DNA of 64,000 nt from an uncultured virus (IMG/VR IMGVR_UViG_3300033148_004385). Lineage: Duplodnaviria > Heunggongvirae > Uroviricota > Caudoviricetes. The stretch is taken from IMG/VR virus record IMGVR_UViG_3300033148_004385, positions 1-64,000 of that record, one strand, 5' to 3'. Positions 46,622-64,000 of this stretch are shown one piece after another. Within the stretch, counting starts at the first letter, position 1; the number at the start of each line of letters is the position of its first letter. Position numbers and translations under genes: made by a program. The notes beneath the pieces are model-generated. The model searched no databases and was not told the origin of the DNA. It saw only the letters and a program-made list of their open reading frames with translations.

Positions 46622-47956
46622 TTATTCATTCCCTTCGGATTCTTTAGTAACCACCGGAAATGGTGGGAATATTAAACAACCGTCTGTTTCATTGTCATAA
46701 TCTATTTCATAAATTAGTGAACCCTCTTCATCCCAATGAAAACCCATTCCATGTAACAGGCCATTTTTATAATTTAATTCCGTTTTTTTATTACCATTTT
46801 CATGCCATTCAATGTGTTTACCGTGTCTTTTACCATCTTTATAACTCACTTCACTTCTCTTATTGCCATCTTCATACCAAGTGGTTAACACACCATGTTC
46901 TTTACCATCATTATAATTTATTTGTGAAGACTTCTTACCATTTTCATGATACTTTAATTGTCTACCATCTAATTTCCCATCCTTAAATTCATATTCAGAC
47001 ATTTTAGTGCCATCAGCAATATCATCTTCAATGCTATAATAATAGTGAATAGATTTACCATTTAACACATCATTCATATAATTTTCTTCTGTTTCTTTAC
47101 TTCCATCTTTATACCAAAGAAGTCTTTTACCATATTTTTTTCCAACAATATATTCAACGAAACTTCTTTTGTTGCCAGTGTTCCACCATGTACGAACAAC
47201 ACCATGTAATATATCATTTTCATAATTCTTTTCTGATATTAAAAGACCTTTTTCATATATTCTAGCTATTGTTTTAATATAATGCCATGTAGTAGATTCA
47301 CCATCTTGTTTTCCTTCCTTCCATGTAGTTTCAAATACCTTTTTACCTTCTTCATTCCAAATTACTTCATCACCATCTTTAACACCATTTACAATATAAT
47401 ATGTCTTTTTTTTAGTTCCATCACTCCAAAAATAATCAACCTGTCCATTAACTTCAATGTTATTTTCAAATTTCCTACAAAACCCTAATAAACCATTTTT
47501 ATACCAGAATTTGAATTCACCATCTACTAAACCTTTCTTGTAGTCTATTTCAGTATGTTTTGAACCATCTGAATAATATAAAATTTCTTTACCATGGAAA
47601 AAACCATCTTTGTAATCAATATCCATTTGTTTTACACCATGTTCATTAAATACTAGTTTTTTACCATCTAAAATATCATTTTTGTATGTAGCACGTTCAG
47701 ATACTCCACCACCCTGATGGTATTTAATTCTTTCACCTTCCAGTAACCCATTTTTAAACCTTGTGGTCATTTTTTTATTTCCATCTTCATACCATTCTTT
47801 ACAAACACCATGTGGTGAACCATCTTTAATAACATCTTTAAAAAAAACACCACTCTCATCATCACTTTCAATTATACCAGTGAATGGATTTTGTCTTACT
47901 TCATATATCAGACCATCTTTTTTTGTAACAACATCCTTAAAACCAACTCTTTTCAT
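46622..47956 (-). CDS. MORN-variant repeat protein (YwqK-like) 1
   Basis: 444 aa of MORN_2 repeats after a GLIYE...PFTG leader. Confidence 0.9.
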   Translation of the reverse strand: MKRVGFKDVVTKKDGLIYEVRQNPFTGIIESDDESGVFFKDVIKDGSPHGVCKEWYEDGNKKMTTRFKNGLLEGERIKYHQGGGVSERATYKNDILDGKKLVFNEHGVKQMDIDYKDGFFHGKEILYYSDGSKHTEIDYKKGLVDGEFKFWYKNGLLGFCRKFENNIEVNGQVDYFWSDGTKKKTYYIVNGVKDGDEVIWNEEGKKVFETTWKEGKQDGESTTWHYIKTIARIYEKGLLISEKNYENDILHGVVRTWWNTGNKRSFVEYIVGKKYGKRLLWYKDGSKETEENYMNDVLNGKSIHYYYSIEDDIADGTKMSEYEFKDGKLDGRQLKYHENGKKSSQINYNDGKEHGVLTTWYEDGNKRSEVSYKDGKRHGKHIEWHENGNKKTELNYKNGLLHGMGFHWDEEGSLIYEIDYDNETDGCLIFPPFPVVTKESEGNE

Positions 47957-47992
47957 TTTACCCCTTAAATAAAATTATTATATATGTTATTC
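47956..47992. repeat. 37-bp direct repeat, copy 1
   Basis: TTTTACCCCTTAAATAAAATTATTATATATGTTATTC, identical at 48610-48646. Confidence 0.9.
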
Positions 47993-48607
47993 GCCCTTAG
48001 TACCATCTTTGACTTCCGTGTAATAAACCATCTTAACACCATCTTTGTAAATCATTTCACTTTCTTTATTGCCATCTTCACCCCAAATAATATATTTTCC
48101 ATTGAGTTCACCATTTTGATATGTTTCCAAAAAATGTTTACTATCATTTTCGTACCAATGGCTCTGAATTCCATCCTTTTTTCCATCAATATAATTTTCT
48201 TCACACATTTTATCACCATTTTCCCAACATAAAATATGTTTACCATGTTTTTTTCCATTTACATAGTTTTCTTCCATATTCAAAACACCTTTTTTATTCC
48301 ACTCTAAACTACACCCATGTTCTTTTCCATCTTTATAATTATATTCAAGTCTTTTAGTTCCATCTTCATCCCATATATATTTTTTACCATTCAATTCACC
48401 ATTTTCGTAATTACATTCAGATAGTATAACACCATCTTCATACCTAGTAATTTCTTTGCCATGCCTCTTTCCATCCACATAAATTGTTTCACGTGTTCGT
48501 CCATTTTGAGCCGTATAAATACCCTTCCCAGTAAACACAAGTGGTGTCAACTCATATACCACACCATTTTCAACCACAAGATTCTTATCATCTACTACTA
48601 TTTCCAT
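47987..48607 (-). CDS. MORN-variant repeat protein 2
   Basis: MORN_2 repeats. Confidence 0.9.
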   Translation of the reverse strand: MEIVVDDKNLVVENGVVYELTPLVFTGKGIYTAQNGRTRETIYVDGKRHGKEITRYEDGVILSECNYENGELNGKKYIWDEDGTKRLEYNYKDGKEHGCSLEWNKKGVLNMEENYVNGKKHGKHILCWENGDKMCEENYIDGKKDGIQSHWYENDSKHFLETYQNGELNGKYIIWGEDGNKESEMIYKDGVKMVYYTEVKDGTKGE

Positions 48608-48609
48608 TT

Positions 48610-48646
48610 TTTTACCCCTTAAATAAAATTATTATATATGTTATTC
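48610..48646. repeat. 37-bp direct repeat, copy 2
   Basis: Identical to 47956-47992. Confidence 0.9.
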
Positions 48647-49318
48647 ACCATCTGAAGCATCAATTAATTCACCTTGACTATACAGATAAGTTTTGATTAA
48701 TTTCCCATCAGTATCATAATTACTTTGTAGACCATCTTCAAGACCATTTTTATAAAACAATTTAATATGAAGTTCACCATTTTCATGATACCTTCTTGTT
48801 TCACCTTCCTGTACACCATTTTCATAGTTTACAATTAGATTCACATTCCCATTTTCATACCATTGTTTATATTGCCCGATTGATTTACCATTTTCATATT
48901 CTTCTTCGATGTGTCTTTTATTATTCTCAAAATTATTAAAACATTTCCCATGTTTTTTTCCATCATCATTAAATAATATTTTTCGTTCAATATTACCATC
49001 TTCATAATAATCAGTGAACTCATTAATTGGTTTGCCATCTTTATAATTATATATATATTCGACAAGACCTTCCCCATACATTCGATGTTGTCGACCATGT
49101 TTTAACCCATTTCTGTAATTTTTCTCTGATAATAAAACCCCGCCATCATTCCACTGTGAATATTTTCCATCCTTCAAACCATCTTTATAGTATTCTTCAG
49201 ATTTAATGTTGCCATCAGCGAATCTAGTTCTTAAAACACCTGTGTATGGCTTTTGGTTTATTTCATGTAATAAGCCGTCACTCATTTCTGTTAAATATTT
49301 TGGATTTCCTTCTTTCAT
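48641..49318 (-). CDS. MORN-variant repeat protein 3
   Basis: MORN_2 repeats. Confidence 0.9.
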   Translation of the reverse strand: MKEGNPKYLTEMSDGLLHEINQKPYTGVLRTRFADGNIKSEEYYKDGLKDGKYSQWNDGGVLLSEKNYRNGLKHGRQHRMYGEGLVEYIYNYKDGKPINEFTDYYEDGNIERKILFNDDGKKHGKCFNNFENNKRHIEEEYENGKSIGQYKQWYENGNVNLIVNYENGVQEGETRRYHENGELHIKLFYKNGLEDGLQSNYDTDGKLIKTYLYSQGELIDASDGE

Positions 49319-49363
49319 TTTATTCCTTATAAGTAAAATCTAATTATATTATATTTTTTATAT

Positions 49364-50314
49364 TTACCAAAATTTTCTTAAACCAAAAGAAAACCATTTT
49401 TTCCTGCGTTTTTTTTCTACATCAAATTCATAATAATCTTCATATTCTTTATTACCATTTTCATAATACACCATTGTTTTACCATGTTGTAAATTATCTT
49501 TATAATTAATTTCAAGCCAAGGGTTACCATTTCGATAGTAACTTAAATAAAGACCATCCAATTTACCATATTTATAGTTTTCTTTGCTAGATATTATTCC
49601 ATTTTCATACCAACAAAAACATTCGCCATGTCTTTCCCCATCCAAGTAATTTGAAAGAATGTGTTTATTGCCATCACGGTACCATTGTTTATATTGACCA
49701 TGATTTTCACCATTTTTATAGTCTATATCAAATTCTTTATTACCATTCCAATACCATCCTAATTCTTTACCATCTTTTTTACCATTTTTATAGTCTATTA
49801 ATCTCAATACACTTCCAAATTCATCACAAACAATATATTTCCCATGTTTCAAGCCATCTTTATAATCAACCTCAATTTCTTTATTCATCTTTCTATAATA
49901 CCATATTTCTTTACCATGTTTTTTTCCATTCTTATAATTAATTTCAACTTCTTTTTTACCACCAACACGATATGTAATACATGTTCCATCTTCATACCAC
50001 CAAAATTCCTTACCTTCTTGTAACCCATCCACAAAAAAGAGTTCATATTTTTTATTTCCATTTCTATATCTATCGATAAATTTACCATGTTTTTTATTAT
50101 ACTTGTAATTCCTTTCGGATATTATTTCACCAGTGTCATAATACCAAATTTCTTTACCATGTTCTTTCCCATCTTTGTAACTTGTCTCAACACGTTTTTC
50201 ACCACTAACAGAATTATACACAATTACACCTGTATATGGTTTTGTCGTTAATATATGTAATAAGCCATCTTTAATAACCACATTTTTACCATTATTTACA
50301 ATCTTTTCAGTCAT
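49364..50314 (-). CDS. MORN-variant repeat protein 4
   Basis: MORN_2 repeats; basic amphipathic C-terminal tail. Confidence 0.9.
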   Translation of the reverse strand: MTEKIVNNGKNVVIKDGLLHILTTKPYTGVIVYNSVSGEKRVETSYKDGKEHGKEIWYYDTGEIISERNYKYNKKHGKFIDRYRNGNKKYELFFVDGLQEGKEFWWYEDGTCITYRVGGKKEVEINYKNGKKHGKEIWYYRKMNKEIEVDYKDGLKHGKYIVCDEFGSVLRLIDYKNGKKDGKELGWYWNGNKEFDIDYKNGENHGQYKQWYRDGNKHILSNYLDGERHGECFCWYENGIISSKENYKYGKLDGLYLSYYRNGNPWLEINYKDNLQHGKTMVYYENGNKEYEDYYEFDVEKKRRKKWFSFGLRKFW

Positions 50315-50322
50315 TATATCCC

Positions 50323-50781
50323 CTATACATTATCTTGTTTAACACCATTAACAAAATTAATAAAATATTCAATTTCACCATCTTCAAGCCAACTAGTAAA
50401 CCTACCTTCTTTTTCACCATCGATATAATTACCTTCATATTCTATTTTACCATTATAGAACCACCAAGTAGCCTTACCATGTTTTTTACCATCTTTATAA
50501 TTTACTTCTGATTCCTTATTGCCATTGTAATACCAAGAAGTTTCTAATCCATGCCTTTTACCATCCTTAAAAAATTTAACAACATCTTTTTCTCCAAACC
50601 AAACCCATTCACAAAATTTACCATCCAATAAACCATTTTTATAATTTATTAAATTCTTCATATTTCCATTACTATACAATATTATTTCTGTACCATCTTT
50701 TAAACCATCTTTATATTCAATCTTATATTCACCACTTTTTTCAACCACACCTGTGAAGTTTTCACCATTTATTTTAAACAT
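50323..50781 (-). CDS. MORN-variant repeat protein 5
   Basis: MORN_2 repeats. Confidence 0.9.
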   Translation of the reverse strand: MFKINGENFTGVVEKSGEYKIEYKDGLKDGTEIILYSNGNMKNLINYKNGLLDGKFCEWVWFGEKDVVKFFKDGKRHGLETSWYYNGNKESEVNYKDGKKHGKATWWFYNGKIEYEGNYIDGEKEGRFTSWLEDGEIEYFINFVNGVKQDNV

Positions 50782-50804: not shown

Positions 50805-51572
50805 TTATTTAATATATCCATCAACATAAACACACATATTTTTTTTTCTTCCATCTTTATAATATTCAATGCTATCACCATGGAAATAACCATCTTTATG
50901 ATTACGTTCATATCGTATATTACCATTCTCAAAAAATTCTAATTCTTTACCGTGTTTATCCCCATCTTTATAATTACATTCATATCTTTTCTTACCATTT
51001 TCATACCATTCACTATCGTTACCATGAAATTTATCATCCTTATAATTTGCAACACATTTTATATTCCCGTAATAATACCATTTTATTTCTTTACCGTGTC
51101 GTTTACCCTCATTATAATTTCGTTCTAATTCCTTGTTTCCATTCTCATGCCATCTTGTTTGAAGCCCATGCGACAAACAACCCTTATAATTAAATTTGCA
51201 GTGGCTACCACCATTTTTATAAAACCAAAGTTCTACACCATCCAATTTACCATTAACATATGATGAATCAATTTTTATATTTCCATTTTCCCACCATACA
51301 ATATGTTTACCATTTACTACACCATTATCAAAATTAGTTTCAGATTCTTTATTTCCATTATCATACCATTTCGTATATTTACCATCAAATTCGCCATCTT
51401 TAAATATAACCTCATATTTCACTTTACCATTCTCATAAAAACTTTTAAATTTTCCATTTCTCAAACCATTTTTATAACTACCATCTTCACCCACAACATT
51501 AATTGCTTGACCTGTATATGTAATTTCTTTTAGTTCATAAAATTTACCGTTATATTCTGCAACTATTTTCAT
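50805..51572 (-). CDS. MORN-variant repeat protein 6
   Basis: MORN_2 repeats. Confidence 0.9.
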   Translation of the reverse strand: MKIVAEYNGKFYELKEITYTGQAINVVGEDGSYKNGLRNGKFKSFYENGKVKYEVIFKDGEFDGKYTKWYDNGNKESETNFDNGVVNGKHIVWWENGNIKIDSSYVNGKLDGVELWFYKNGGSHCKFNYKGCLSHGLQTRWHENGNKELERNYNEGKRHGKEIKWYYYGNIKCVANYKDDKFHGNDSEWYENGKKRYECNYKDGDKHGKELEFFENGNIRYERNHKDGYFHGDSIEYYKDGRKKNMCVYVDGYIK

Positions 51573-52396
51573 TATAACACCTCACCATTTTTATATTCAT
51601 ATTCACATTCTTTCTTACCATTTCTATACCACCAAGTTTGTATACCATGTTTTTTTCCATTTACATAGTTTTCTTCTACATCTATTTTACCATTTCTATA
51701 CCACCATGTTTCTTTACCATGTTTTAAACCATTTTTATAATTTGTTTCTATGTATTTGCAGCCATTATTATACCACTGAATTTGAAGACCATGTTTTTCA
51801 TCATTTACATAATTTGTTTCACATTCTTTCTCACCATTTCTATACCATTCTGTGTGTCTGAAATCCCCATTACCATCAGTATAGTATAAGTCTTTTTTAT
51901 TACCATCCATATAAAAGACTATTTTTTCACCGATATGTTTATCATTCACATAACATGATACCATCTTGATTTCACCGTTTTCATGCCACCAAATTTCTTT
52001 ACCCTCTTGTATGCCAGATTTATAATTTCGTTCTATATATTTATTCCCATTTTCATACCAAGTTTCATGTGTTCCATTTTTATCATCATCTAAATATGGG
52101 ATTTTTTCATGAATTGCACCACTTTTGTGATATGTATTAATATAACCATCCCTTTTACCATTTACATAATCACATTCATAACTTCTGTTGCCATTTTCAT
52201 GCCACCAAATTTCTTTACCGTGTCTTTTACCATTTTCATATTTTATATTAAATTTCATCCCACCAGAAGGGAATTTTTCAATAATACTTCCTGTAAATAT
52301 TTCACGTTTTTTTAATGTATATAAAATACCACCTAATTTAAATACATCTTTTTTATATAAAATATTATCTGTTTTAAGATTGTTTTTGACACTCAA
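51572..52396 (-). CDS. MORN-variant repeat protein 7
   Basis: MORN_2 repeats; TTG start after GGGGG. Confidence 0.88.
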   Translation of the reverse strand: MSVKNNLKTDNILYKKDVFKLGGILYTLKKREIFTGSIIEKFPSGGMKFNIKYENGKRHGKEIWWHENGNRSYECDYVNGKRDGYINTYHKSGAIHEKIPYLDDDKNGTHETWYENGNKYIERNYKSGIQEGKEIWWHENGEIKMVSCYVNDKHIGEKIVFYMDGNKKDLYYTDGNGDFRHTEWYRNGEKECETNYVNDEKHGLQIQWYNNGCKYIETNYKNGLKHGKETWWYRNGKIDVEENYVNGKKHGIQTWWYRNGKKECEYEYKNGEVL

Positions 52397-52522: not shown

Positions 52523-52969
52523 TTATCGTATAACCACCAACAAACCATTTTCATATTTTTCTTTAGTTACTTCATTACCTTTGTTATCCCATTCGGTATA
52601 TATTCCATGTTTTACACCATCTTTATAATTAGATTCATTTTTTTTATTTCCATTATTATAATATACGTTAACAACACCCTCTATTTTATCATTTTTAAAA
52701 AAACATTTTATGAATACATTACCATTTCCATGCCATTCTGTGTGTTCACCATTTCGTTTACCATTTTTATAATTTAATTCAGTTTTTTTATTACCATTTT
52801 CATACCAATAAATTTCTTTACCATCTTTTAAACCATTGTTATAGTTTGTCTCACTACATTTTGCACCATTACCCCATTATTCAGTAACAACACCAGTATA
52901 TTCATTATCAACAATTTGATATAATACACCATCAATTACCATACAATCATTAATATCAATTTTATTCAT
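52523..52969 (-). pseudogene. MORN-variant repeat gene 8 with premature TAA
   Basis: AGGAG RBS; MNKIDINDCMVIDGVLYQIVDNEYTGVVTE*WGNGAKCSETNYNNGLKDGKEIYWYENGNKK...; TAA at 52877-52879. Confidence 0.85.
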
Positions 52970-52978: not shown

Positions 52979-53767
52979 CTATAAACTATAATTTTTCTTG
53001 CCATTTTCATAATAAAAAAGACTTTTTGTTTTCCCATCTTCATACCAAGACATATAATCACCATTTAATACACCCTTTTTGTAATTCATTTCTTTTTTCC
53101 TATTCCCATTTTCATGATATAAATTAACCTTCCCAATTGGCATATCATTTCTATAATTAGTTTCACTTTTTTTGTTACCATTACTAAACCAAATAATTTC
53201 TTTACCATTTAATCTATCATTTCTATAATTCGCCTTACTTTTTTTCTTACCATCTTTATACCATTCTTTTTGAACACCATGCAATAAACCATTTTCATGG
53301 TTATTTTCACTTTTGATGTTTCCATCTTCATACCAACGAATTTCTTTACCATATTTATTATTGTTTTTTAAGTTACACTCACATTTTTTATTACCATTTT
53401 CATACCAATGTGTGTGTTTATTATTATAATTTATTTCACGTCTTTTATTTCCATTTTCATCCCACTCAATAAGTATGCCATCTAATTTACCATCAGCATA
53501 AAACATTTGCGTTTGTTTCCCACCATTATCAAACCATTTAGTGTATTCACCATGTTGTTTTCCATTCTTATAATTAATTTCATATTCTTTTTTACCATTT
53601 TCATCATAATGAATGTTTTTACCATGTATTAAACCATTTTTATAAACCCCTTCACTAATTATTTTATCATCATATTGTCTAATGACAACCCCAGTGTAAC
53701 CACTGTTTTTTATTTCGTATAATACACCGTTTTTTATCACACAATTGTCGAAATCAGTTTTATTCAT
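52979..53767 (-). CDS. MORN-variant repeat protein 9
   Basis: MORN_2 repeats; AGGGG RBS before ATG 53767. Confidence 0.9.
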   Translation of the reverse strand: MNKTDFDNCVIKNGVLYEIKNSGYTGVVIRQYDDKIISEGVYKNGLIHGKNIHYDENGKKEYEINYKNGKQHGEYTKWFDNGGKQTQMFYADGKLDGILIEWDENGNKRREINYNNKHTHWYENGNKKCECNLKNNNKYGKEIRWYEDGNIKSENNHENGLLHGVQKEWYKDGKKKSKANYRNDRLNGKEIIWFSNGNKKSETNYRNDMPIGKVNLYHENGNRKKEMNYKKGVLNGDYMSWYEDGKTKSLFYYENGKKNYSL

Positions 53768-53854
53768 AATATCCCCTATAAATAGTGACTTGATTATCAC
53801 TTATTGATATTATACAGATTTTTTTGGGATTGTTAAGTTTTTTTTTAGATTTAT

Positions 53855-54418
53855 TTAAGATTCTTTAATTTTAACACCATTTTCGTATAGTGTTTCTGAT
53901 TCTTTATTGCCATCTTCATCCCACCAAATTTCTTTACCATGCTTTTTTCCATTTACATACGTTGTTTCACAAGCTTTAGTGCCATCTTCATAAAACATTT
54001 GACTTAAACCATGAGGTAAATCGTTTTTATGTGTAAGAATATGTTTTTTTCCTTTATCCCCATCTTTATAATATTTAACCATAATACCATCTGATTTTCC
54101 ATTCTTAAAATTATATTCTCTTATTAAGCTTCCGTCCCATTCCCATTCAGTATATTTACCATGATATTCACCATCTTTATAATTAGTTTCTTCTGAAACC
54201 ACACCTTTTTCATAACAATGGTATTTTATGCATTTACCATCTTTCAACCCATTCTTGAAGTTATATATACTTCTAATTTCACCATCATCAGCAGCATCTT
54301 CATCATCCCAACGCCTTATTATTGACCCTGTATAACCTTTTTGTTGTCTTTCGTATATAACACCACCTTTTACAACAAAGTCGCTAAATTCGCTTGATTT
54401 ACTGTTTTCATTACTCAT
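53855..54418 (-). CDS. MORN-variant repeat protein 10
   Basis: MORN_2 repeats; directly behind promoter cassette copy C. Confidence 0.9.
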   Translation of the reverse strand: MSNENSKSSEFSDFVVKGGVIYERQQKGYTGSIIRRWDDEDAADDGEIRSIYNFKNGLKDGKCIKYHCYEKGVVSEETNYKDGEYHGKYTEWEWDGSLIREYNFKNGKSDGIMVKYYKDGDKGKKHILTHKNDLPHGLSQMFYEDGTKACETTYVNGKKHGKEIWWDEDGNKESETLYENGVKIKES

Positions 54419-55633: not shown

Positions 55634-56383
55634 TTATACTATGATATCATCTAAATATTCATATTCATATTGTTTACTTCCATCTTTGTAGAACCAAACA
55701 CATGCACCATGTTTTTTATCATCTTTATAATTTAATTCGTATTGTTTGTTACCATTATCATACCACCCTAATATAACACCCTCTTGTTTGTCGTCATTTA
55801 AAAAACCTTTGTATTCCAACTCACCATTTTTATGCCATCTTAAAGTGATACCATATACTATACCATTTTTTGTGTTTACTTCGTGTTTTTTATTCCCATT
55901 TTTATAAAACATTTTTTGAATACCATCAGCTAAACCCCTTTTATAAAACTCTATAAATTCAGTGTTACCATTTTCATACCATGTTATTAACTCAAAATCA
56001 CTCTTATTGTTTTTATTTTTATAGAAAACTTCAGATTTCCTTTTACCACTTCTATACCAACTTTTTAAATCTAAAAGAGCACATGAAATACCAATTCTTT
56101 TTTTGTTACCATTATCCCACCATTCACAAAACTCACCACGTTTTTTACCATTCACAAAATTATAAACACTTCTTTTATTACCCTTTTTATACCAATAGGT
56201 TCGTTTACCATTTAATTTACCATATTGATAATATTCTTCATAATACAAAACATTGTTGTATTTCCATTTTGTATATTTGCCTTCACGTTTATAATTAACA
56301 AGTGTGCATTCCGATTTCTTGTTAAAATCATCATAATAATTTATAATTTCACGTGTATTTGTGTTGTCTATCTTTCTATCCAT
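55634..56383 (-). CDS. MORN-variant repeat protein 13
   Basis: MORN_2 repeats. Confidence 0.9.
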   Translation of the reverse strand: MDRKIDNTNTREIINYYDDFNKKSECTLVNYKREGKYTKWKYNNVLYYEEYYQYGKLNGKRTYWYKKGNKRSVYNFVNGKKRGEFCEWWDNGNKKRIGISCALLDLKSWYRSGKRKSEVFYKNKNNKSDFELITWYENGNTEFIEFYKRGLADGIQKMFYKNGNKKHEVNTKNGIVYGITLRWHKNGELEYKGFLNDDKQEGVILGWYDNGNKQYELNYKDDKKHGACVWFYKDGSKQYEYEYLDDIIV

Positions 56384-56837
56384 TTTCACACCCCTTTTTA
56401 AGTAAACCACCATCTTTATAATAATATTTTACTACTTCCTTACCACTTTTATCCCAATGTATTTCTTCCCCATCTTTTAAACCAAATACATAATTTCGTT
56501 CTATATGTTTACCACCATTTTCATACCAAATAAATTCATAACCATTTTTAAAATAATTAAGATAATTTCTTTTTATATGAATATCCCCATTTTTATGCCA
56601 ATAAGTTTGTTCACCATTTCGTTTACCATTTTCGTAATTACATTCTTTATATCTTTTACCATTTTCATACCAATGAATTTCTTTACCATGTTTTTTACCA
56701 TCTACATAATCTATCTCACAAAATTTATTACCATCATCATATAAATCGACAAACTTACCAGTAAATGGGTTTTCTTTTAATTCATACATTAAACCACCCT
56801 TCAACCCAGTGTTCTCATAATTGACAACATTTTCCAT
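56376..56837 (-). CDS. MORN-variant repeat protein 14
   Basis: MORN_2 repeats. Confidence 0.9.
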   Translation of the reverse strand: MENVVNYENTGLKGGLMYELKENPFTGKFVDLYDDGNKFCEIDYVDGKKHGKEIHWYENGKRYKECNYENGKRNGEQTYWHKNGDIHIKRNYLNYFKNGYEFIWYENGGKHIERNYVFGLKDGEEIHWDKSGKEVVKYYYKDGGLLKKGCENG

Positions 56838-56847: not shown

Positions 56848-57387
56848 TCATAATATATTACCTAACATTTTTTTTACCCTAATGTGTTTCTTTACATCCC
56901 AGTTACTTAAATCTTGTTTAAAGGATTTTGCATTTAAAAACATCCATTCCATATAAATTACATTGCTAACATTCCAACCACCAATATCACTATTAAAAGA
57001 ATCAGTATCCTTAAACATAGCAGTCATATCATAAACATTACTCACATCCCATTTACTTAAATCACCATTAAAAGAAGTAGCACCATAAAACATACTATTC
57101 ATATTGGTAGCACCACTTACATCCCAATTACTTATATCACAATCAAAAGTATTTGCATCCATAAACATATGACTCATGTTGTGAAGTTTTGATACATCCC
57201 AATCACTGATGTTTATGTTAGGGTATTTCTTGAAAATATTATTAATACCCAATGTGTCACCTTTGTTTTGATATCGTTGTACTTTTTTTGTTAAAAAACC
57301 TGTACGATAATCGGTAACAAATAAAGATTTAAGAAAATCACGAATTATTAATTTTCCGTTACTAAATTCTACTTGATATTTCATCAT
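56848..57387 (-). CDS. DUF285 / BspA-like repeat protein
   Basis: FNGDLSKWDVSNVYDMTAMF-type repeats. Confidence 0.88.
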   Translation of the reverse strand: MMKYQVEFSNGKLIIRDFLKSLFVTDYRTGFLTKKVQRYQNKGDTLGINNIFKKYPNINISDWDVSKLHNMSHMFMDANTFDCDISNWDVSGATNMNSMFYGATSFNGDLSKWDVSNVYDMTAMFKDTDSFNSDIGGWNVSNVIYMEWMFLNAKSFKQDLSNWDVKKHIRVKKMLGNIL

Positions 57388-58101: not shown

Positions 58102-58467
58102 CTAACCACCACATTTAAAACCATTTTTATAATCTATTTCACTTTTTTTATTGCCATTTTTATACCATTTAGTTTCCTTACCATTTAATTCACCATTTAA
58201 ATAAAATCTCTCAAATACTTTACACCCATTATCATAATACAATATTTCTTTCCCATGTTTTTCACCATTTTTATAATCCACACTTTTTTGTTTATTCCCA
58301 GTATAACCCCATAATATACAAATACCATGTTTTATGCCACTTTCGTATTCTATTTCATGATGTTTATTACCCTTATCATATAAATCAATGAATTTACCAG
58401 TAAAAGGTTCTTGTTTTAATTCATATGCTAAACCGTTGTGTTCGCCTATTTTATCAGTTGTTGTCAT
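58102..58467 (-). CDS. MORN-variant repeat protein 15
   Basis: MORN_2 repeats; AGGAG RBS. Confidence 0.9.
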   Translation of the reverse strand: MTTTDKIGEHNGLAYELKQEPFTGKFIDLYDKGNKHHEIEYESGIKHGICILWGYTGNKQKSVDYKNGEKHGKEILYYDNGCKVFERFYLNGELNGKETKWYKNGNKKSEIDYKNGFKCGG

Positions 58468-58506: not shown

Positions 58507-58535
58507 ACTATATCATTTGTTTATTATTTTGTCAA
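58507..58535 (-). promoter_or_regulatory. sigma70-type promoter
   Basis: TTGACA-17-TATAGT with TG extension. Confidence 0.6.
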
Positions 58536-58572: not shown

Positions 58573-58944
58573 TCATTTTTTACACAAAACATTTTTTAAT
58601 GTTTTAATGACAGACTCTTTAACTATATCAATGTTATCAACCATAGTTTTTGTCTTTGGGTTTTCAGAAATAAGACCAATGCTACCATCATTATAATATT
58701 CTAAATAAACAATTTTATATGTATTGCGAAAGACTAAACAAACCCCTTCATCAGCAGAAGTAGTAACACGAAACGGTATTAATTTATTAGAAACAAATTC
58801 AGGTATCATTTTTCTTAAACCATCTAAAATTTCTTTAGATGGTTTTTCACCCATTTCTTCATGTGGGTAATTACCACCAGATAACCAATTTTCTAAATCA
58901 TCAATTTTTTTTAATAATATTTCATTAAAATCAATCATCACCAA
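58573..58944 (-). CDS. Hypothetical protein
   Basis: 123 aa non-MORN ORF inside the array. Confidence 0.65.
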   Translation of the reverse strand: MVMIDFNEILLKKIDDLENWLSGGNYPHEEMGEKPSKEILDGLRKMIPEFVSNKLIPFRVTTSADEGVCLVFRNTYKIVYLEYYNDGSIGLISENPKTKTMVDNIDIVKESVIKTLKNVLCKK

Positions 58945-60058
58945 TTATTTCCCCATTTTTATATTCTTTTTTATATTCTACTTCCCCATATCTCCAAGTA
59001 CTTTGAATACCATCTTTTCTATCATTCACATAATCTACTTCGGATTCTTTTTTACCATCTTCATACCAAGTTTCAAATTTACCATGTTTATCACCATTTT
59101 TATAATTTAATTCACATTCTTTATTACCATTTTCATACCATTCTGTATATTTACCATCCAAACAACCTTTCACATAGTTTCGTTCATATTTTTTATTACC
59201 ATTTCTATGCCACACAGTATATTTACCTTCGTATCCATCGTGACCACGAAAACCCTTACACTCAATTTTACCATTTAAATAATACCAACTTAAAGAACCA
59301 AATCTTTTACCAAAATTATAATTTACTTCAGATTCTTTTTCACCATTATCATACCACTTTGTTTGTTTACCATCCTTATCACCATCTTTATAATTATATT
59401 CTAACTCTTTTTTACCATTACTATACCAAATTATTGTTGTACCATGTTCTTTTCCATTCACATAATTCCCATCACGTCTTTTATTTCCATTTCCCCACCA
59501 TTCAATATATTTCCCATTTTCTTTACCATTTTTATAATGTATTTCATATTCTTTACGACCACTATCATACCATTTTATTTCTAAGCCATGTATTAAACCA
59601 TCTTTATGGTAAAGTTCATTTTTTATGTGTCCACTCTCATACCACCATGTTTCTTTACCATTTAATTCACCATCAATATAATTTTTTTCTACGTTTTTTT
59701 TACCATTTTCATACCAATAAATTTCTTTACCGTGTTTCATTCCATTCTTAAAATTAAGTTCAACCATTTTTTGACCACGACCATAATATTGTGTATATTT
59801 ACCATGTTTCAAACCATCCTTGTAATATACCTCCATTTTTATTACATCACCAGGATATTCATGATATTCAATAAGTACACCAGTAAATGGTTTGGGTTCT
59901 AAACTATACATTATATCATCAATTTGAATTGGTTTTTTTTTAGTTTTATATTCGTTAATGTGTATAATATTATTGCATCCATTTTTTTTATATTCATTTG
60001 TTGGTGTTATTGCATGTGTTAAACCATTAATTTCTATAATTTTATTTGTAATTTTCAT
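58931..60058 (-). CDS. MORN-variant repeat protein 16
   Basis: 375 aa of MORN_2 repeats. Confidence 0.9.
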   Translation of the reverse strand: MKITNKIIEINGLTHAITPTNEYKKNGCNNIIHINEYKTKKKPIQIDDIMYSLEPKPFTGVLIEYHEYPGDVIKMEVYYKDGLKHGKYTQYYGRGQKMVELNFKNGMKHGKEIYWYENGKKNVEKNYIDGELNGKETWWYESGHIKNELYHKDGLIHGLEIKWYDSGRKEYEIHYKNGKENGKYIEWWGNGNKRRDGNYVNGKEHGTTIIWYSNGKKELEYNYKDGDKDGKQTKWYDNGEKESEVNYNFGKRFGSLSWYYLNGKIECKGFRGHDGYEGKYTVWHRNGNKKYERNYVKGCLDGKYTEWYENGNKECELNYKNGDKHGKFETWYEDGKKESEVDYVNDRKDGIQSTWRYGEVEYKKEYKNGEIIGDD

Positions 60059-60068: not shown

Positions 60069-60974
60069 CTATTTTATATAGCCATATTCATATGTTCCTT
60101 TCTCACAAATAGAACCATCTTGATTATAAATTGTATATTCTCCGTTTTCTAAACCTTTTTCATAATACCGTTCATTTTTTTTATCACCATTTTCATACCA
60201 TTTTGTTTGTTTACCATGTTTATTTCCATCTACATAATCTACTTCACTTTTTTTATTTCCGTTTTCATCCCAAATACTCTCTAAACCATTTGATTTGCCA
60301 TCAACAAAATTTCTTTCCCAATGTTTTACACCATTTTCATGCCACCTCTTTTCTTTACCGTTTAATTTACCATTTTCGTAAACCTCTTCACTCATTTTCT
60401 TTTTAAGCGAATACGAAAACCAAACAATCTTTTTCCCGTGTCTCTGACCATTTTTATAATTAGTTGTTATATGTTGTGTACCATCAGGTGAAACATCAAT
60501 CATAATACCATGTATTTGACCATTTTCATAGTTTATTACAGTACTTTCGCCACCACTTGGGTAATAAGAAATGCTCTTACCATGTTCTTTCCCATCTACA
60601 TAATCTATATCATGGCTTTTACTTCCATTTTTCCACCATAAAATATGTTTACCATTTAATACACCATTATCAAAATCACTTTCAGATTGTTTATTACCAT
60701 TTTCATACCATTTAGTTTGTTTACCATTTTCTTTACCATTTGTATAATTTAATTCAATTTTCTTTTGTCCATTTTTATGCCATTCTGTGTGTTTGCCATT
60801 TAAAACACCATCTTTATAATTAGTATTATATTTCATAGAACCATCTTTACGGTATTCAATTTCAACCCCATCTAACACACCATCTTTATAATTACTTCGT
60901 TTTTTTACATTACCATTTTTTTTATATGTTTCTATTAATTCACCATTTACTGGAACACCATTTAATTTAATCAT
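60069..60974 (-). CDS. MORN-variant repeat protein 17
   Basis: MORN_2 repeats. Confidence 0.9.
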   Translation of the reverse strand: MIKLNGVPVNGELIETYKKNGNVKKRSNYKDGVLDGVEIEYRKDGSMKYNTNYKDGVLNGKHTEWHKNGQKKIELNYTNGKENGKQTKWYENGNKQSESDFDNGVLNGKHILWWKNGSKSHDIDYVDGKEHGKSISYYPSGGESTVINYENGQIHGIMIDVSPDGTQHITTNYKNGQRHGKKIVWFSYSLKKKMSEEVYENGKLNGKEKRWHENGVKHWERNFVDGKSNGLESIWDENGNKKSEVDYVDGNKHGKQTKWYENGDKKNERYYEKGLENGEYTIYNQDGSICEKGTYEYGYIK

Positions 60975-61843
60975 TATTTTACCCACCACTTTATATCGCC
61001 ATCTCTTTTACCATCTTTATAATTTTCTTCACAAGCTTTTTTTCCACTATCATGCCACCAAATTTCTTTACCATTTTTTTTACCATCTTTATGATTTGTA
61101 TTTGATTCGATTTTACCATTAGGATGCCAAGTAAAACCGAAACCCTGCATATCACCATCTTCATATTCTGATTCTAATTGCTTATTACCATTAGGATAAA
61201 ACCTAGTAAATGTACCATGTAATTGACCGTTTTTATACATCTTATAGCTTTTTTTCTCACCACCCTGATACCAAGACATAGAAACACCATCTTGTACACC
61301 ATCCTTAACATTTATTTCCATTGATTTAATACCATTTTCATACCAGATAGTTTCTTTACCATTTATTTTATTATCTATATAAGTTAATTCCCTTTCTTTA
61401 TTTCCATTTTCATGATATTTAATTTGTTTTCCATGCAGAATGTGACATTTTTTATAATTATATTCACTTTGGATATTGCCATTTTCATACCAGATTGTTT
61501 CTAATCCATCCATAACATCATTTAGATAATTTGTTTCCTTTCTTTTTTTACCATTACTATACCATATTGTATATAACCCATTTTTTTTACCATTCTCATA
61601 ACTTACTTCTATCCATTTCTTTCCATTTTCATTCCACCATGTTTCTTTACCATGTTCTTTCCCATCTTTGTAATCAACTACATTGTATATCTCACCTTCA
61701 TCATTATAATTGGTAATTTTCCCATGTAGCTTTCCATCCTTAATAAAACCTTTAATTTTATTATTTTTAATTTCACCTGTATAGGGTTTAATCATAACTT
61801 GACGATAAACCCCACCAACAAAACACACTTTCATTTCATCCAT
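60974..61843 (-). CDS. MORN-variant repeat protein 18
   Basis: MORN_2 repeats. Confidence 0.9.
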   Translation of the reverse strand: MDEMKVCFVGGVYRQVMIKPYTGEIKNNKIKGFIKDGKLHGKITNYNDEGEIYNVVDYKDGKEHGKETWWNENGKKWIEVSYENGKKNGLYTIWYSNGKKRKETNYLNDVMDGLETIWYENGNIQSEYNYKKCHILHGKQIKYHENGNKERELTYIDNKINGKETIWYENGIKSMEINVKDGVQDGVSMSWYQGGEKKSYKMYKNGQLHGTFTRFYPNGNKQLESEYEDGDMQGFGFTWHPNGKIESNTNHKDGKKNGKEIWWHDSGKKACEENYKDGKRDGDIKWWVK

Positions 61844-61846
61844 ATT

Positions 61847-62299
61847 TTACCCCTGTTTTAATATTAATATAAAAAAATTATTTTCTTTTAGGAATTCAGA
61901 ATATTCACTCAAATTATAAATACCATTTCTATAACGCATTTCATTAAGTAATTCTTTATTAGCTAAATAATTGTTATATGCATCATTCAAATACGTTTTA
62001 AAATCATCCAAAATCCCTACCTCATTGTGACCAAAAACTACTAAATCATAACCATCAATCTCACCAAACAATTCACCAGTTTCATACCCTGATATTTTAA
62101 GTTCTAATTTATTTTTTAATTTTATATTAGAAATTGAGTCTATATATAATATTGTTTCTTGTGGTTTGGCAAGACAACCCCTAGAATTTAAATTCGCTTC
62201 CATTGCTAAAATTAATTTATGAATAGAATAAAAAACAACTGCTAATGGTAATGATAATAAACCCCAAACCACAAGGCTTTCCAATTGAGATTGAGTCAT
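61847..62299 (-). CDS. Single-pass membrane hypothetical protein
   Basis: N-terminal TM helix; start overlaps the upstream TGA. Confidence 0.65.
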   Translation of the reverse strand: MTQSQLESLVVWGLLSLPLAVVFYSIHKLILAMEANLNSRGCLAKPQETILYIDSISNIKLKNKLELKISGYETGELFGEIDGYDLVVFGHNEVGILDDFKTYLNDAYNNYLANKELLNEMRYRNGIYNLSEYSEFLKENNFFILILKQG

Positions 62300-63073
62300 A
62301 TTTTTTCACCCTTAATATATTCACTAATATTTTTTATTTCACCATTTTCATGCCATTCTGTATATTTACCATGAAGTATACACTTCTTAAAATTCCGTTC
62401 AAATCTTTTATTTCCATTCTCATACCAAGCAATTTGAATACCATCTTCTACATCATTCACATAATTTGTTTCAGATTGTTTATTTCCATTCTTATACCAA
62501 TAAGTATGAACACCATACCTATTACCATTTTCATACTGCAATTCACATTTTATCTTGCCATCATAATACCATCTTATTTCTTTACCATTTTTTTTACCAG
62601 CTTCATAGTTTATTTCATTTTCTTTATTTCCATTCTCATACCAAAGAAAAGATTTCCCAATCGGCTTGGCGTTTTCGTAAATTGATTCAAAACTTTTCTT
62701 ACCATTTTCATGCCATTCAGAGTGTTTACCATGTCTTTTACCATGCTTATAAAATATTTCAGTTTGTTTATTGCCATTATGATACCACCAAGTTTGTATA
62801 CCATGGCTTTCCCCATTCTCGTTATTTAATTCATATAGTTTACTACCATATTCGTTCCATTCAATTTCAACCCCATGTAGTAACCCATCTTTATAAGTTT
62901 CTTCTGATGCTTTATCACCATTTTTATGCCAAAAAAACTCTTTACCATCTTTTTTTCCATCTTTATAGTTTATTTCCCATTCTTTTCTCCCATTCTTATT
63001 GTAATAAACCTCTTTACCATTTTTTTTTTTCGGCTAAATAACCACCTTCTGGTATTAAATTGTTTTTACACAT
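62296..63073 (-). pseudogene. MORN-variant repeat gene 19, frameshifted in an A11 tract
   Basis: AAGGAG RBS, ATG 63073; T11 run at 63020-63030; removing one base gives an uninterrupted 258-aa MORN ORF. Confidence 0.85.
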
Positions 63074-63121
63074 AGATTTCTCCTTTGAAAATAAATAATT
63101 GCATAATTACAACCACAATTT

Positions 63122-63150
63122 ATTATATATTTTATTTCATATTTTGTCAA
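63122..63150 (-). promoter_or_regulatory. sigma70 consensus promoter
   Basis: TTGACA-17 nt-TATAAT on the minus strand. Confidence 0.7.
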
Positions 63151-63188
63151 TTACTTTTATGATTTCATTTATTAAGAGAAAAGAAATA

Positions 63189-63983
63189 TTAAATATCCAT
63201 TTCCATAGCAATTTCAGCACTTCCCACATTAACTTTTTTTAAATGTTTATTTATTATAACCTTACGCTCATGTGTATATTTTGCAATTTGAAGACCATGT
63301 TTTTTTCCATTTTTGTAATTACAGGTGGTTTTCAATTTTTCAAATAATGACATACCATCATCGGGTATAAAATCGTAAATTTCTACCTTAAATCTGTGAA
63401 CACCAGTAACCCATTTGGTATAGAGACCCTCTATTAATCCATTATTATAAAAACATTCAATATCAAGTTCCTTATATCTATCATGCTTTTTGTATTCACC
63501 ATGTAATAGCCCCTGTTTATATGTTGTCTTAACATCTATTCTTCCGTTTTCATGCCAAGATTTATATTCACCATGTCTTTTCCCATTTTCATATCTGACA
63601 TCTGATTTCTTTTGTCCACTCACATACCAAAAGAAAGATTTTCCATGTGGTTTATTATTTTTAAATTCCTGAATGGATTTTAACTTATCATTTTCATAAC
63701 GTAATATTGACACCCCATCTTTTTTATTGTTTTTATATTCAATATTTGAAATCATTACATTATTGTCATCCCATTCAATTTGTTTACCATGTAATTTCCC
63801 ATATTTGAACATTTTCTCTGTTTTTAATAGCCCATTTTTACAATATTTCTCTTGCCGTCCATGTAATTTATTATTTTTAAAATTTTGAATTAAATTTCTT
63901 TCACCATTTTTGAAATTCCTAATAATCCTTATACCACCATCTTCATGATATAATTCATCGAAAAAAATGTTTTCTTCAATCAT
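63189..63983 (-). CDS. MORN-variant repeat protein 20
   Basis: MORN_2 repeats. Confidence 0.9.
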   Translation of the reverse strand: MIEENIFFDELYHEDGGIRIIRNFKNGERNLIQNFKNNKLHGRQEKYCKNGLLKTEKMFKYGKLHGKQIEWDDNNVMISNIEYKNNKKDGVSILRYENDKLKSIQEFKNNKPHGKSFFWYVSGQKKSDVRYENGKRHGEYKSWHENGRIDVKTTYKQGLLHGEYKKHDRYKELDIECFYNNGLIEGLYTKWVTGVHRFKVEIYDFIPDDGMSLFEKLKTTCNYKNGKKHGLQIAKYTHERKVIINKHLKKVNVGSAEIAMEMDI

Positions 63984-64000
63984 GTTTGCCCCACTAATTT

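Follow-up and report, generated by a model that had tools for sequence, protein, structure and literature searches.

Bacterial MORN_2 proteins (PF07661), grouped in COG2849 as the "YwqK family antitoxin", are built on a G/W/Y/NG scaffold that recurs every 22-24 residues. Their genes are mostly solitary, with one frame in 54 of 63 loci, and the products are often exported. In Fusobacterium "active invaders" and in Helicobacter bilis, a massive expansion into MORN2 clusters has been reported (McGuire et al. 2014, PMC4222103); the account given there is one of local tandem duplication and highly diverged copies of unknown function, with signal peptides on most fusobacterial proteins (87%) and clustering with the adhesins FadA and RadD. 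Among giant viruses, which infect eukaryotes, Marseilleviridae, Orpheovirus, Pithovirus, Klosneuvirus-like viruses and Pandoravirus have many diverged MORN paralogs, some in tandem and some belonging to F-box-fused families; they are described as multigene families in PMC5753266 and PMC7192143. A 1.47-Mb giant-virus contig in IMG/VR also holds runs of 7 and 9 MORN frames. Expansion of such a gene family is already known from giant viruses and Fusobacterium. In tailed phages, an earlier note on the DNA studied here knew of no such system, and no comparable array was found in the phage and virus collections and the literature searched. MORN_2 matches occur in just 3 of 50,697 INPHARED records; three MORN_2 genes lie side by side in a Helicobacter equorum prophage (BK070118.1), and IMG/VR contigs have 1-4 frames each, an order of magnitude below the copy number reported below.

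The window analysed is a stretch of 64,000 nucleotides from an uncultured phage (positions 1 to 64,000 of IMG/VR record IMGVR_UViG_3300033148_004385). Its MORN genes share with the bacterial family the scaffold, the variability profile and, in 13 of 74 bacterial frames, the N-terminal cap G-x-x-Y...[FY]-T-G, and the ESM Atlas neighbours of the phage proteins belong to that family. In contrast to the bacterial genes, there are about 26 copies in the one phage, apparently cytoplasmic and without an adjacent toxin gene. Tandem duplication and strong divergence recall Fusobacterium, whereas the phage copies lack signal peptides and sit among putative phage early genes; no link between the phage and Fusobacterium was demonstrable. 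BFVD matches were dominated by giant-virus MORN families, including about 20 Orpheovirus proteins, with some entries named "YwqK family antitoxin", but here the carrier is a tailed phage.

Results

An array of MORN_2 genes in a divergent T4-like phage

The phage is a deep-branching, very divergent T4-like myovirus, whose capsid protein has about 25% identity to known capsid proteins; usable relatives were looked for and none was found. Its T4-like character, already proposed in the earlier note, was borne out by core genes of T4 type. Among them are genes for the clamp loader, SSB, primase, baseplate wedge and prohead protease, for RNR and a split DNA polymerase, and for the portal, a gp23-type capsid, the sheath and the tube. 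The complete genome is 153.5 kb long, with the structural module at about 96-128 kb of the near-identical record G001, apart from the MORN array.

Between positions 46622 and 63983, 20 minus-strand MORN_2 frames were found, as the earlier note had counted them. Eighteen are intact, measuring 121-444 aa (about 120-444 aa had been claimed). Another is interrupted by an in-frame stop, and the last is put out of frame by a poly-A run, a shift that the near-identical assembly does not show. The Pfam gathering score for PF07661 was passed by 18 of the 19 ORFs scanned, M15 scoring 23.1 against a cut-off of 29.6 bits; M08 (52523-52969) was outside that scan, and its MORN_2 matches come from another search. 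Four non-MORN genes interrupt the array. Unless other evidence is given, the assignments below come from the Pfam scan and, where a cap is named, from the N-terminus.

46622..47956 (-) M01, MORN_2 paralog, 444 aa, capped; 78.5 bits, 17 units
47987..48607 (-) M02, MORN_2 paralog, 206 aa, capped
48641..49318 (-) M03, MORN_2 paralog, 225 aa, capped
49364..50314 (-) M04, MORN_2 paralog, 316 aa, capped
50323..50781 (-) M05, MORN_2 paralog, 152 aa, shortened cap
50805..51572 (-) M06, MORN_2 paralog, 255 aa, capped; structure modelled (Pfam scan, pLDDT 95.3)
51572..52396 (-) M07, MORN_2 paralog, 274 aa from a TTG start, loose cap
52523..52969 (-) M08, MORN_2 paralog interrupted by a TAA in frame at 52877-52879, same in both assemblies
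52979..53767 (-) M09, MORN_2 paralog, about 262 aa from ATG, capped
53855..54418 (-) M10, MORN_2 paralog, 187 aa, capped
54498..54980 (-) M11, capless MORN_2 paralog, 160 aa; its ATG overlaps the M12 stop (ATGCGTAA)
54973..55557 (-) M12, MORN_2 paralog, 194 aa, capped; upstream partner of M11
55634..56383 (-) M13, capless MORN_2 paralog, 249 aa; its ATG overlaps the M14 stop (ATGGATAG)
56376..56837 (-) M14, MORN_2 paralog, 153 aa, capped; upstream partner of M13
56848..57387 (-) DUF285/PARCEL repeat protein, 179 aa, non-MORN; 170 bits
57384..58031 (-) GmrSD_N (DUF262) domain protein, 215 aa, non-MORN; NsnA and PD-T4-2_A models
58102..58467 (-) M15, MORN_2-like paralog, 121 aa, capped; under the Pfam cut-off
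58573..58944 (-) non-MORN gene of unknown family, 123 aa; no family in domain and defence-model scans
58931..60058 (-) M16, MORN_2 paralog, 375 aa, long N-terminus, loose cap
60069..60974 (-) M17, MORN_2 paralog, 301 aa from ATG, capless
60974..61843 (-) M18, MORN_2 paralog, 289 aa, loose cap
61847..62299 (-) non-MORN gene of unknown family, 150 aa, hydrophobic N-terminal stretch; no family in the scans
62296..63072 (-) M19, MORN_2 paralog, with a frameshift in this assembly at A11 (63020-63030); assembly comparison
63189..63983 (-) M20, divergent MORN_2 paralog, 264 aa, capless; 45.7 bits

The array had been said to reach the window edge, and it goes on beyond it with three more genes, which brings it to 23:

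contig 64993-65853 (-) MORN gene
contig 68077-68556 (+) MORN gene
contig 69493-69735 (-) MORN gene

The whole genome has about 26-28 MORN-bearing frames; the count of 28 comes with 218 units and about an eighth of the DNA (~12%). Misassembly, which the earlier note had named as a danger, was rejected: the two assemblies are 99.98-100% identical, phage core genes flank the array on both sides, and its GC content (0.26-0.29) is within the range of the window (0.22-0.33).

A fixed scaffold with the variability of the family

The repeat unit is strictly 24 aa (72 nt). Over the 126 full units of the 23 paralogs, with consensus KHGKEIxWYENGNKKSExNYKNGK, the scaffold residues are conserved; entropy is low at G3, W8, G12, Y20 and G23, and positions 1, 5, 7, 15, 16 and 18 have high values, in agreement with the fixed scaffold first described. 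A strict cap, G-x-x-[YFH]-x(5-6)-[FY]-[TS]-G, is present in 13 of the 23 paralogs and in 11 of the 20 within the window, where four more have looser forms, read from their N-termini; it is thus fair to say that most paralogs are capped.

The idea of a special variable binder repertoire was not supported by comparison. Per-position variability of the phage units tracks the profile obtained from outside homologs (278 units; r = 0.96), and a reverse transcriptase is absent from the complete genome. The pattern is generic for the MORN_2 family, without phage-specific hypervariation, and there is therefore no sign of directed diversification. On our reading of the strand register in the M06 model, the variable positions would lie on both faces of the sheet. 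Leave-one-out scoring classed 22 of the 23 paralogs, with 100 of the 126 units, as phage-type; among the outside proteins this held for just 6 of 64, with 40 of the 278 units. This common signature (H2, K4, I6, N13) could partly reflect an AT-rich genome rather than shared descent.

The AlphaFold2 model of M06, the one paralog modelled (50-row alignment), has hairpins throughout (pLDDT 95.3, pTM 0.83), and its best Foldseek matches are MORN1 (6t69, 6t6q, 6t4r, 6t4d), junctophilins and radial-spoke MORN proteins. Together with the Pfam matches, this supports the MORN-type beta-sheet protein first proposed: as modelled, the paralogs are shown as an elongated single sheet of MORN-type beta-hairpins plus a short N-terminal cap. 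The same single-layer sheet is seen in eukaryotic MORN1 (6t69/6t4r/6t4d) and junctophilin (7rw4/7rxe), at E values of 6e-10 to 2e-6 and TM 0.47-0.51 for the predicted M06, yet identity is only 16-26%, the 24-aa phage repeat has its own consensus, and no PDB chain was detectable by sequence. By a crude hydrophobicity count, none of the 23 N-termini resembles a signal peptide, as claimed, whereas 42 of 65 outside homologs reach at least 9 hydrophobic residues of 12. Isoelectric points range from 5.1 to 9.35.

Birth and death of copies

The paralogs are 28-54% identical to each other, with roughly 50% in the best pair. The array contains no near-identical units or DNA repeats and no recent duplicates, and the copies appear to be old. 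Units are no more alike inside proteins (identity 0.37) than between them (0.36), and the repeat shuffling that had been suggested was not upheld. Gene birth is supported: M14-M13 and M12-M11 are homologous two-gene modules with overlapping stop and start codons, the N-terminus of M13 being homologous to that of M11, and collinear full-length paralog pairs are present. The duplicated module points to growth by tandem duplication. M16 is the top within-phage match of ten other paralogs. Since just 12 of the 23 paralogs find a better BLAST match inside the phage than among 65 outside homologs, some may come from repeated acquisition.

Gene death, also claimed before, is seen in M08, whose TAA sits directly after the cap and before the repeats, and in the frameshift polymorphism of M19, which in G001 has A10 instead of A11 and an intact ORF of 258 aa; one or both of the assemblies give an intact frame for 21 of the 23 genes in the array. 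Six of the 8 point differences between assemblies fall within MORN frames, which are 22% of the length (binomial P = 0.002; 8 sites only, and the poly-A run may have been misassembled). They comprise 4 nonsynonymous changes, 1 synonymous change and 1 frameshift. Judged by these differences, MORN frames change faster than the rest, which we counted in favour of the explanation preferred below.

Predicted promoters and a plausible early-gene setting

Near-consensus sigma-70-like promoters were found in 5 of the 8 coding-strand intergenic gaps of at least 70 nt, scoring 10-12/12 and lying 39-49 nt ahead of the start codon. These calls come from a consensus scan in DNA of 27% GC, in which the region gave 189 matches versus 150 +/- 14.5 in shuffles.

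63122..63150 (-) 12/12 (TTGACA-17-TATAAT), upstream of M19
58507..58535 (-) 11/12 with TG extension, upstream of M15
55602..55629 (-) 11/12, upstream of M12
53809..53836 (-) 11/12, upstream of M09
54461..54489 (-) 10/12, upstream of M10
49343..49370 (-) 10/12, upstream of M03

T4 gp30.3-like and RNase H-like genes adjoin the array. With these T4-type early neighbours and the predicted promoters, the early expression proposed before is plausible.

Discussion

Could the array be a strict YwqK-type immunity repertoire? Each paralog would then bind and neutralise one toxin domain, from host abortive-infection or defence effectors or from effectors injected by neighbouring cells, and the array would be a phage-borne orphan-immunity island keeping the infected cell alive until lysis. 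Orphan immunity gene arrays do occur on mobile elements, and the phage proteins are many, diverse in charge and apparently cytoplasmic. Homologs are named "YwqK antitoxin" by JGI and NCBI; the sole characterised member, B. subtilis YwqK, is reported to co-purify with the deaminase toxin YwqJ and to be its cognate immunity protein (bioRxiv 10.64898/2026.09.29.755374), and in C. jejuni the host operon with the strongest induction by a T4-like phage is reported to include the YwqK-like gene cj0424 (PMC6024767). However, a toxin gene is absent in and beside the array, and none of 43 upstream neighbours of bacterial MORN_2 genes is an evident toxin: two are small MafB19/dCMP-type deaminases (154-187 aa) resembling housekeeping TadA, and the others are housekeeping or further MORN genes. 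PADLOC gave no match for the four paralogs scanned. Most outside homologs look exported (42/65 here; 87% reported for Fusobacterium in PMC4222103), so the MORN_2 family is not generally a cytoplasmic antitoxin. We consider this explanation unlikely, and the earlier claim of host toxins as targets, purely an annotation transfer from YwqK, was not sustained.

The nonsense codon, the frameshift polymorphism and the clustering of inter-assembly differences in the array, with 4 of 5 substitutions nonsynonymous, would also suit a neutral or near-neutral gene accordion, driven by unequal recombination among repeats and kept as tolerated filler, a case already made for giant-virus repeat-domain genes whose number scales with genome size; in amoebal viruses, repeat-domain gene number is reported to track genome size (PMC5753266). 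Recent duplicates are lacking, though, and at 28-54% identity the retention of long open frames in 21 of 23 genes and of all scaffold residues requires long purifying selection. Since packaged phage genomes are limited in size, 19 kb of filler would presumably be costly, and we find an accordion quite improbable. Very improbable are virion-associated or lysis-released adhesin-like proteins binding cell surfaces or matrix, an idea that takes the exported Fusobacterium MORN2 proteins as its model. Four paralogs partly match NCBIfam LIC20035, an adhesin model (38-77 bits, where the cut-off is 250), a DUF285/PARCEL surface-repeat gene lies inside the array, and fusobacterial MORN2 proteins are predicted as surface proteins in PMC4222103; yet export signals are absent by the crude measure, no paralog is fused to structural domains, the structural module is separate, and the promoters are host-type in a setting that is not late-type. 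Slightly less probable still is a lattice, in which paralogs would bind each other into an intracellular scaffold, for example at a replication or assembly site. Two conserved, translationally coupled capped/capless gene pairs would fit it, and the eukaryotic MORN1 proteins solved in the 6t69/6t6q work reportedly dimerise, but such pairing is found in just 2 of about 11 transcription units.

What we describe is a real, unusual multigene family in a tailed phage. The explanation that we prefer, with about even confidence, is a lineage-specific MORN_2 family, anciently tandem-duplicated and early-expressed, acting as a panel of intracellular host-protein binders. The family would have grown long ago, as single genes and one translationally coupled two-gene module were duplicated in tandem, and would still shed members. 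Host RNA polymerase would transcribe the array early from the sigma-70-like promoters, in several short operons. Every paralog would present a differently decorated and differently charged sheet surface, which makes intracellular binding of host proteins their most likely role. Inside the infected cell, such proteins may serve as a panel of protein-binding adaptors or as inhibitors of host proteins, helping the phage to take over the host or to counter its defences; in this they would resemble the multigene families of repeat-domain proteins in giant viruses.

Results

The MORN_2 array and its extent

The window covers the leading 64 kb of an IMG/VR virus contig of 74,258 bp. Between 46622 and 63983, its minus strand holds 20 frames made of MORN_2 repeats (M01 to M20). 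Nineteen were scanned as ORFs against the Pfam MORN_2 model PF07661, a 22-residue repeat with a gathering score of 29.6 bits. Eighteen passed, with several tandem repeat matches and scores of 37.9 to 98.6 bits, and M15 (121 aa) fell below the cut-off at 23.1 bits. The twentieth frame, M08, starts normally and is capped, then runs into an in-frame TAA, with five repeats behind it. The start of M19 is lost in the window assembly via an A11 run; G001, a near-identical and complete 153.5-kb assembly of the same phage that bears terminal repeats, has A10 there and an intact ORF of 258 aa. Frame finding and the HMM scan thus confirm the 20-gene array described in the earlier note. It had been seen to run to the window edge, and it goes further: three more MORN genes (M21 to M23), one of them on the opposite strand, lie past the window, up to 69.7 kb on the contig, which has 88 matches to the MORN_2 repeat model.

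In the complete genome, our own repeat HMM detected 28 MORN frames with 218 units, 23 of them in the array and 5 dispersed (one or two near 87.4 kb and three near 137.3-139.3 kb of G001). Three of the dispersed frames were scanned against Pfam and gave one pass, one score just under the cut-off and one lack of match. Summed frame lengths from the repeat HMM come to about 19 kb for the family, some 12% of the genome. With many diverged, largely tandem paralogs in a large dsDNA virus, the array is a repeat-protein multigene family (accordion type) of the large-DNA-virus kind, here in a tailed phage. It is interrupted by four unrelated genes, encoding a DUF285/PARCEL protein, a GmrSD_N (DUF262) protein and two small proteins of no known family. 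Its base composition resembles that of the rest of the genome, except for a strongly G-rich coding strand. Because of this strand, GC skew is strongly negative over the array (-0.39 to -0.60 in window 46000-64000), and many antisense promoter-like matches of the type TTTACC-17-TATAAT arise.

The phage carrying the array

PHROG matches in the genome identified a clamp loader, gp32-like SSB, primase, baseplate wedge and prohead protease, and in addition a DNA polymerase in two parts, ribonucleotide reductase, portal, gp23-type capsid (also matched by PF07068), sheath, tube, RNA ligase and QueC-like protein. Since core replication and structural genes are present, the phage is, on its gene content, a T4-like myovirus, as had been proposed, and very distant from known ones: identity to the best phage record is about 25% for the capsid and about 31% for the clamp loader (roughly 2,000-2,600 matching records). 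Other genes of this genome are listed below.

Genes of the phage outside the MORN_2 family (coordinates, strand where assigned, description)
Window 17661-18596, plus: DNA-modification-type gene
Window 24422-26041, plus: TnpB/Cas12f-like gene, 539 aa (Pfam Cas12f1-like TNB; PADLOC Cas12u3/Cas12f models)
Window 29297-30133, minus: DNA-modification-type gene
Window 37736-38503, plus: DUF285/PARCEL repeat protein, outside the array
Window 38460-39458, plus: DNA-modification-type gene
Window 40997-42622, minus: DNA-modification-type gene
Window 45994-46605, minus: 203-aa gene flanking the array, no Pfam match itself
Window 56848-57387, minus: DUF285/PARCEL repeat protein, inside the array
Window 57384-58031, minus: GmrSD_N (DUF262)-only short protein (also PADLOC NsnA, PD-T4-2_A)
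Contig 70439-71035 (locus L002, 1231-1821), minus: second GmrSD_N-only short protein
G001 75059-76147: DNA polymerase, exonuclease-part ORF, 362 aa
G001 80371-82275: DNA polymerase, polymerase-part ORF, 634 aa
G001 105650-106387: DNA-modification-type gene

The two polymerase parts are separated by about 4 kb of other ORFs. The TnpB/Cas12f-like ('transposase') gene has distant plasmid homologs only (26-31%), mostly haloarchaeal. GmrSD_N is a domain of type IV restriction enzymes, and the two DUF285/PARCEL proteins make up a second repeat family of the phage. Two members of the DNA-modification set are clear DNA methyltransferases, and a third, with DUF4942, is weakly methyltransferase-like; a radical SAM gene and the QueC-like gene complete the set, which as a whole suggests heavy DNA modification. 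The endolysin is a T7-lysozyme-type amidase, with best matches in phages of Ralstonia, Vibrio, Klebsiella and Helicobacter, and a Rha-like N-terminus matches genes of Bacteroides phages at 51% identity across 98 aa. No tRNA gene was found in the window.

Relatives were scarce. Exact-peptide scans of IMG/VR with the flanking 203-aa gene, M12, the clamp loader and the capsid returned this phage or identical fragments only, and a metagenome scan with the flanking gene found none. Among 5.8 billion proteins, the flanking gene has a single homolog (47% identity, precomputed PF18163); for the capsid there are two relatives (43% identity), one on a 1.7-kb and one on an 11.7-kb contig. When genome contigs were searched with the repeat pattern WYENGNK, the matches listed were mostly in Bacteroidota and Marinimicrobia MAGs, at 27-46% identity.

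Repeat unit, cap and fold

The repeat unit is exactly 24 residues (72 nt), with the consensus KHGKEIxWYENGNKKSExNYKNGK over 126 full units. Positions G3 and G12 are almost invariant, W8, Y20, G23, N11 and K14 are well conserved, and positions 1, 5, 7, 15, 16 and 18 vary most. The contrast between a fixed scaffold and variable positions, on which the earlier note had built, is therefore real. It is not specific to the array, however: position by position, variability in the phage units tracks that in 278 units taken from 65 outside homologs (r = 0.96), so the pattern is a signature of the MORN_2 family. Overall, phage units are slightly more variable than outside ones (2.25 versus 2.02 bits).

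An AlphaFold2 model from a single sequence was unusable (pLDDT 36.4), and a model of the 255-aa paralog M06 based on a 50-row alignment was used instead (pLDDT 95.3, pTM 0.83). It has 22 strands with a 24-residue period, one hairpin per unit, the strands covering unit positions 3-8 and 14-21. A PDB search by sequence gave no match. By structure, Foldseek returned first MORN1 of Toxoplasma, Trypanosoma and Plasmodium, and then junctophilins and radial-spoke MORN proteins, so that model and matches agree on the MORN-type beta-hairpin repeat fold. Read from the strand register of this model, rather than from coordinates, the variable positions would lie on both faces of the sheet, with 5, 7 and 15 on one face and 16 and 18 on the other.

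Most paralogs are capped, as had been noticed: the strict N-terminal pattern (G-x-x-[YFH]-x(5-6)-[FY]-[TS]-G) is present in 13 of the 23 array members, and looser forms in several more. The cap also occurs in 13/74 bacterial MORN frames, usually 30-56 residues into the open frame, after an apparent export signal. It is a feature of the family.

Expression setting and location of the proteins

On the coding strand, the four highest-scoring promoter-like sites (12, 11, 11 and 11 of 12 positions) are intergenic and lie 5' of M19, M15, M12 and M09. Among the eight gaps of at least 70 nt, five hold a site of at least 10/12, ending 39-49 nt before the start codon. Spacings of 0-45 nt, or overlaps, between the remaining array genes imply short operons. 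A TATATAATAA-like motif recurs upstream of some array genes. The neighbours of the array are DUF285, GmrSD_N, radical SAM-like, T4 gp30.3-like, RNase H-like exonuclease, guanylate kinase and second GmrSD_N genes, and the structural genes are located elsewhere. Predicted promoters, early-type neighbours and the distance from structural genes would fit early transcription by the host polymerase. The early expression proposed before is thus plausible in its setting, as a deduction from sequence.

A hydrophobic N-terminal stretch (at least 9 hydrophobic residues in 12, within the first 35, a crude count) was found in 0/23 paralogs versus 42/65 outside homologs, in line with the absence of signal peptides reported earlier. 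In Fusobacterium, a passage of PMC4222103 gives 87% of 697 MORN2 genes with a signal peptide. By this crude measure, the phage copies thus appear to be the cytoplasmic version of a family mostly exported in bacteria. Paralog pI ranges from 5.1 to 9.35, and a DNA-mimic role was rejected on that ground.

Age, origin and growth of the array

Identity reaches 45-54% in the closest paralog pairs and is 30-40% in most; DNA repeats within the array are 60-86% identical, over short stretches only. Units are as alike within a protein (0.37 identity) as between proteins (0.36). Recent duplications are thus absent, and nothing points to repeat shuffling in recent times, which had been put forward together with gene birth and death.

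Gene birth, in turn, is borne out. The pairs M22-M12, M15-M14, M08-M14 and M21-M06 are collinear over their full length, including the cap. Moreover, M14-M13 and M12-M11 are homologous two-gene modules, in which a short capped gene precedes a capless gene, and the two capless proteins share a specific N-terminal segment. In both, the stop of the capped gene is overlapped by the ATG of the capless gene (ATGGATAG and ATGCGTAA), which suggests translational coupling. To judge from the alignment of these modules, the array grew by tandem duplication of segments.

In a search of 5.8 billion proteins, homologs of M16 reached 44% identity at most. Only 12/23 paralogs have a better match inside the phage than among these 65 outside homologs, indicating that pairwise similarity is saturated. 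Even so, by a leave-one-protein-out position-specific score 22/23 paralogs (100/126 units) are phage-type versus 6/64 outside proteins, the signature residues being H2, K4, I6 and N13. Such a signature speaks for one origin within the lineage; AT-rich codon bias could, however, yield part of it.

A diversity-generating retroelement is excluded, because the complete genome has no reverse transcriptase (no match to RVT_1). Nor is there a near-identical template/variable repeat pair: no DNA repeats exceed about 86% identity over 36-45 nt.

The contig and G001 are 99.98-100% identical, differing at 8 points in 74 kb and by one indel of 45 bp, at window 38689/38690, with the extra bases in G001. 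Six of the eight point differences fall inside MORN frames, whose share of the sequence is 22% (binomial P = 0.002). These six comprise four nonsynonymous changes, one synonymous change and the poly-A frameshift in M19. With the small number of eight sites, this suggests faster change in the MORN family.

Comparison with known systems

Only 3 of 50,697 phage records matched M06 or M16. The best is a Helicobacter equorum prophage record (BK070118.1, 27258-29971) with three adjacent MORN_2 genes, whose annotation reads hypothetical or 'EngA'. A first, degenerate motif pattern gave 19 stretches in IMG/VR, eight of which are overlapping windows of this phage, with 1-3 matches per contig for the others. 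A broader pattern gave 46 stretches, 13 of them (26 matches) from this phage, and no other tailed-phage-sized contig with more than two. Other IMG/VR contigs carry 1-4 MORN frames each. On a 6.8-kb contig (L189), seven general MORN_2 motif matches fall within 760 nt, probably in one long repeat gene of a short viral contig.

In the collections searched, arrays of comparable length were found only in giant-virus records. The closest IMG/VR analogues are runs of 7 and 9 neighbouring MORN_2-type frames on a 1.47-Mb giant-virus contig (L023, L024), and BFVD holds many MORN proteins of Orpheovirus, Marseillevirus, Pithovirus and Klosneuvirus-like viruses. MORN multigene families of giant viruses are described in passages of PMC5753266 and PMC7192143. 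In the literature searched, no tailed phage was described with an array of MORN or MORN_2 genes; phage records, IMG/VR patterns and literature thus agree with the earlier note, which knew of no such system in tailed phages. Such arrays may be under-assembled, since PMC9238414 reports poor recovery of repeat-rich regions of this kind by short-read assembly, and gives a 37-fold enrichment of MORN repeats in long-read marine viral data versus assemblies.

Discussion

What the MORN proteins may do

Homologs of the phage proteins are linked to YwqK by their source annotations. The antitoxin label stems from B. subtilis YwqK, described as the immunity protein of the deaminase toxin YwqJ (10.64898/2026.09.29.755374); toxin binding and neutralisation are documented for this family member only. 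The main rival explanation, a strict immunity repertoire in the YwqK sense, extends this role to the array. Yet among 43 upstream neighbours of bacterial MORN_2 genes, none is an evident toxin: two are small, TadA-like deaminases, five are further MORN genes, and most others are housekeeping genes. In the phage, the searches brought up no toxin domain inside the array or beside it, the paralogs do not lie directly downstream of a cognate LXG, Rhs, deaminase or similar toxin gene, and no PADLOC model matched the four that were scanned. With 0/43 upstream toxins and no PADLOC match, the antitoxin label is a weak guide; the anti-toxin reading of the earlier note, borrowed from YwqK, loses ground, and a strict immunity repertoire seems improbable.

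Rather, we favour a panel of binders that would act on host proteins inside the infected cell, a reading about evenly poised between right and wrong. It is favoured because a stable, elongated, repeat-built sheet has been multiplied, varied in charge and surface, and kept cytoplasmic and probably early. In eukaryotic proteins with solved complexes, the elongated MORN sheet is a protein-binding module. Of the variable binder repertoire proposed at the outset, the diverged cytoplasmic paralogs stand, whereas the variability is generic to MORN_2. The phage version of the scaffold is stripped down and cytoplasmic, in a genome strongly constrained in size, which argues that the proteins do something useful inside the bacterial cell. 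A neutral gene accordion is unlikely. An extracellular, adhesin-like role, as for the surface MORN2 proteins of Fusobacterium, is less likely again; most of those have N-terminal signal peptides (0/23 in the phage by the crude count) and cluster with FadA/RadD adhesin genes, and the neighbours of the phage array differ. Self-assembly of the paralogs into a scaffold is the least likely of these readings.

Taken further, the binder panel leads to a joint proposal that we regard as rather doubtful: large T4-like phages of uncultured hosts would carry early, cytoplasmic MORN-binder libraries, as a broad counter-defence or immunity island in which each paralog would neutralise a different effector, host-made or delivered by a neighbour. 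Its counterpart in giant viruses and poxviruses would be their host-range families of repeat proteins. These libraries may have been largely missed, with short-read assemblies breaking on the repeats.

Significance

The earlier observation is confirmed and extended, and its interpretation partly supported. The question of MORN_2 function dates from the 2014 description of the Fusobacterium expansion, and about 26 small, soluble phage proteins now offer a tractable route for testing it. Should they prove to bind host or defence proteins, they would form a new class of factors for phage takeover of the host or for anti-defence, and their beta-sheets a natural library of binding scaffolds. The scale of the family within a size-constrained genome makes the array notable, and giant-virus-type gene-family 'accordions' occur in tailed phages too.
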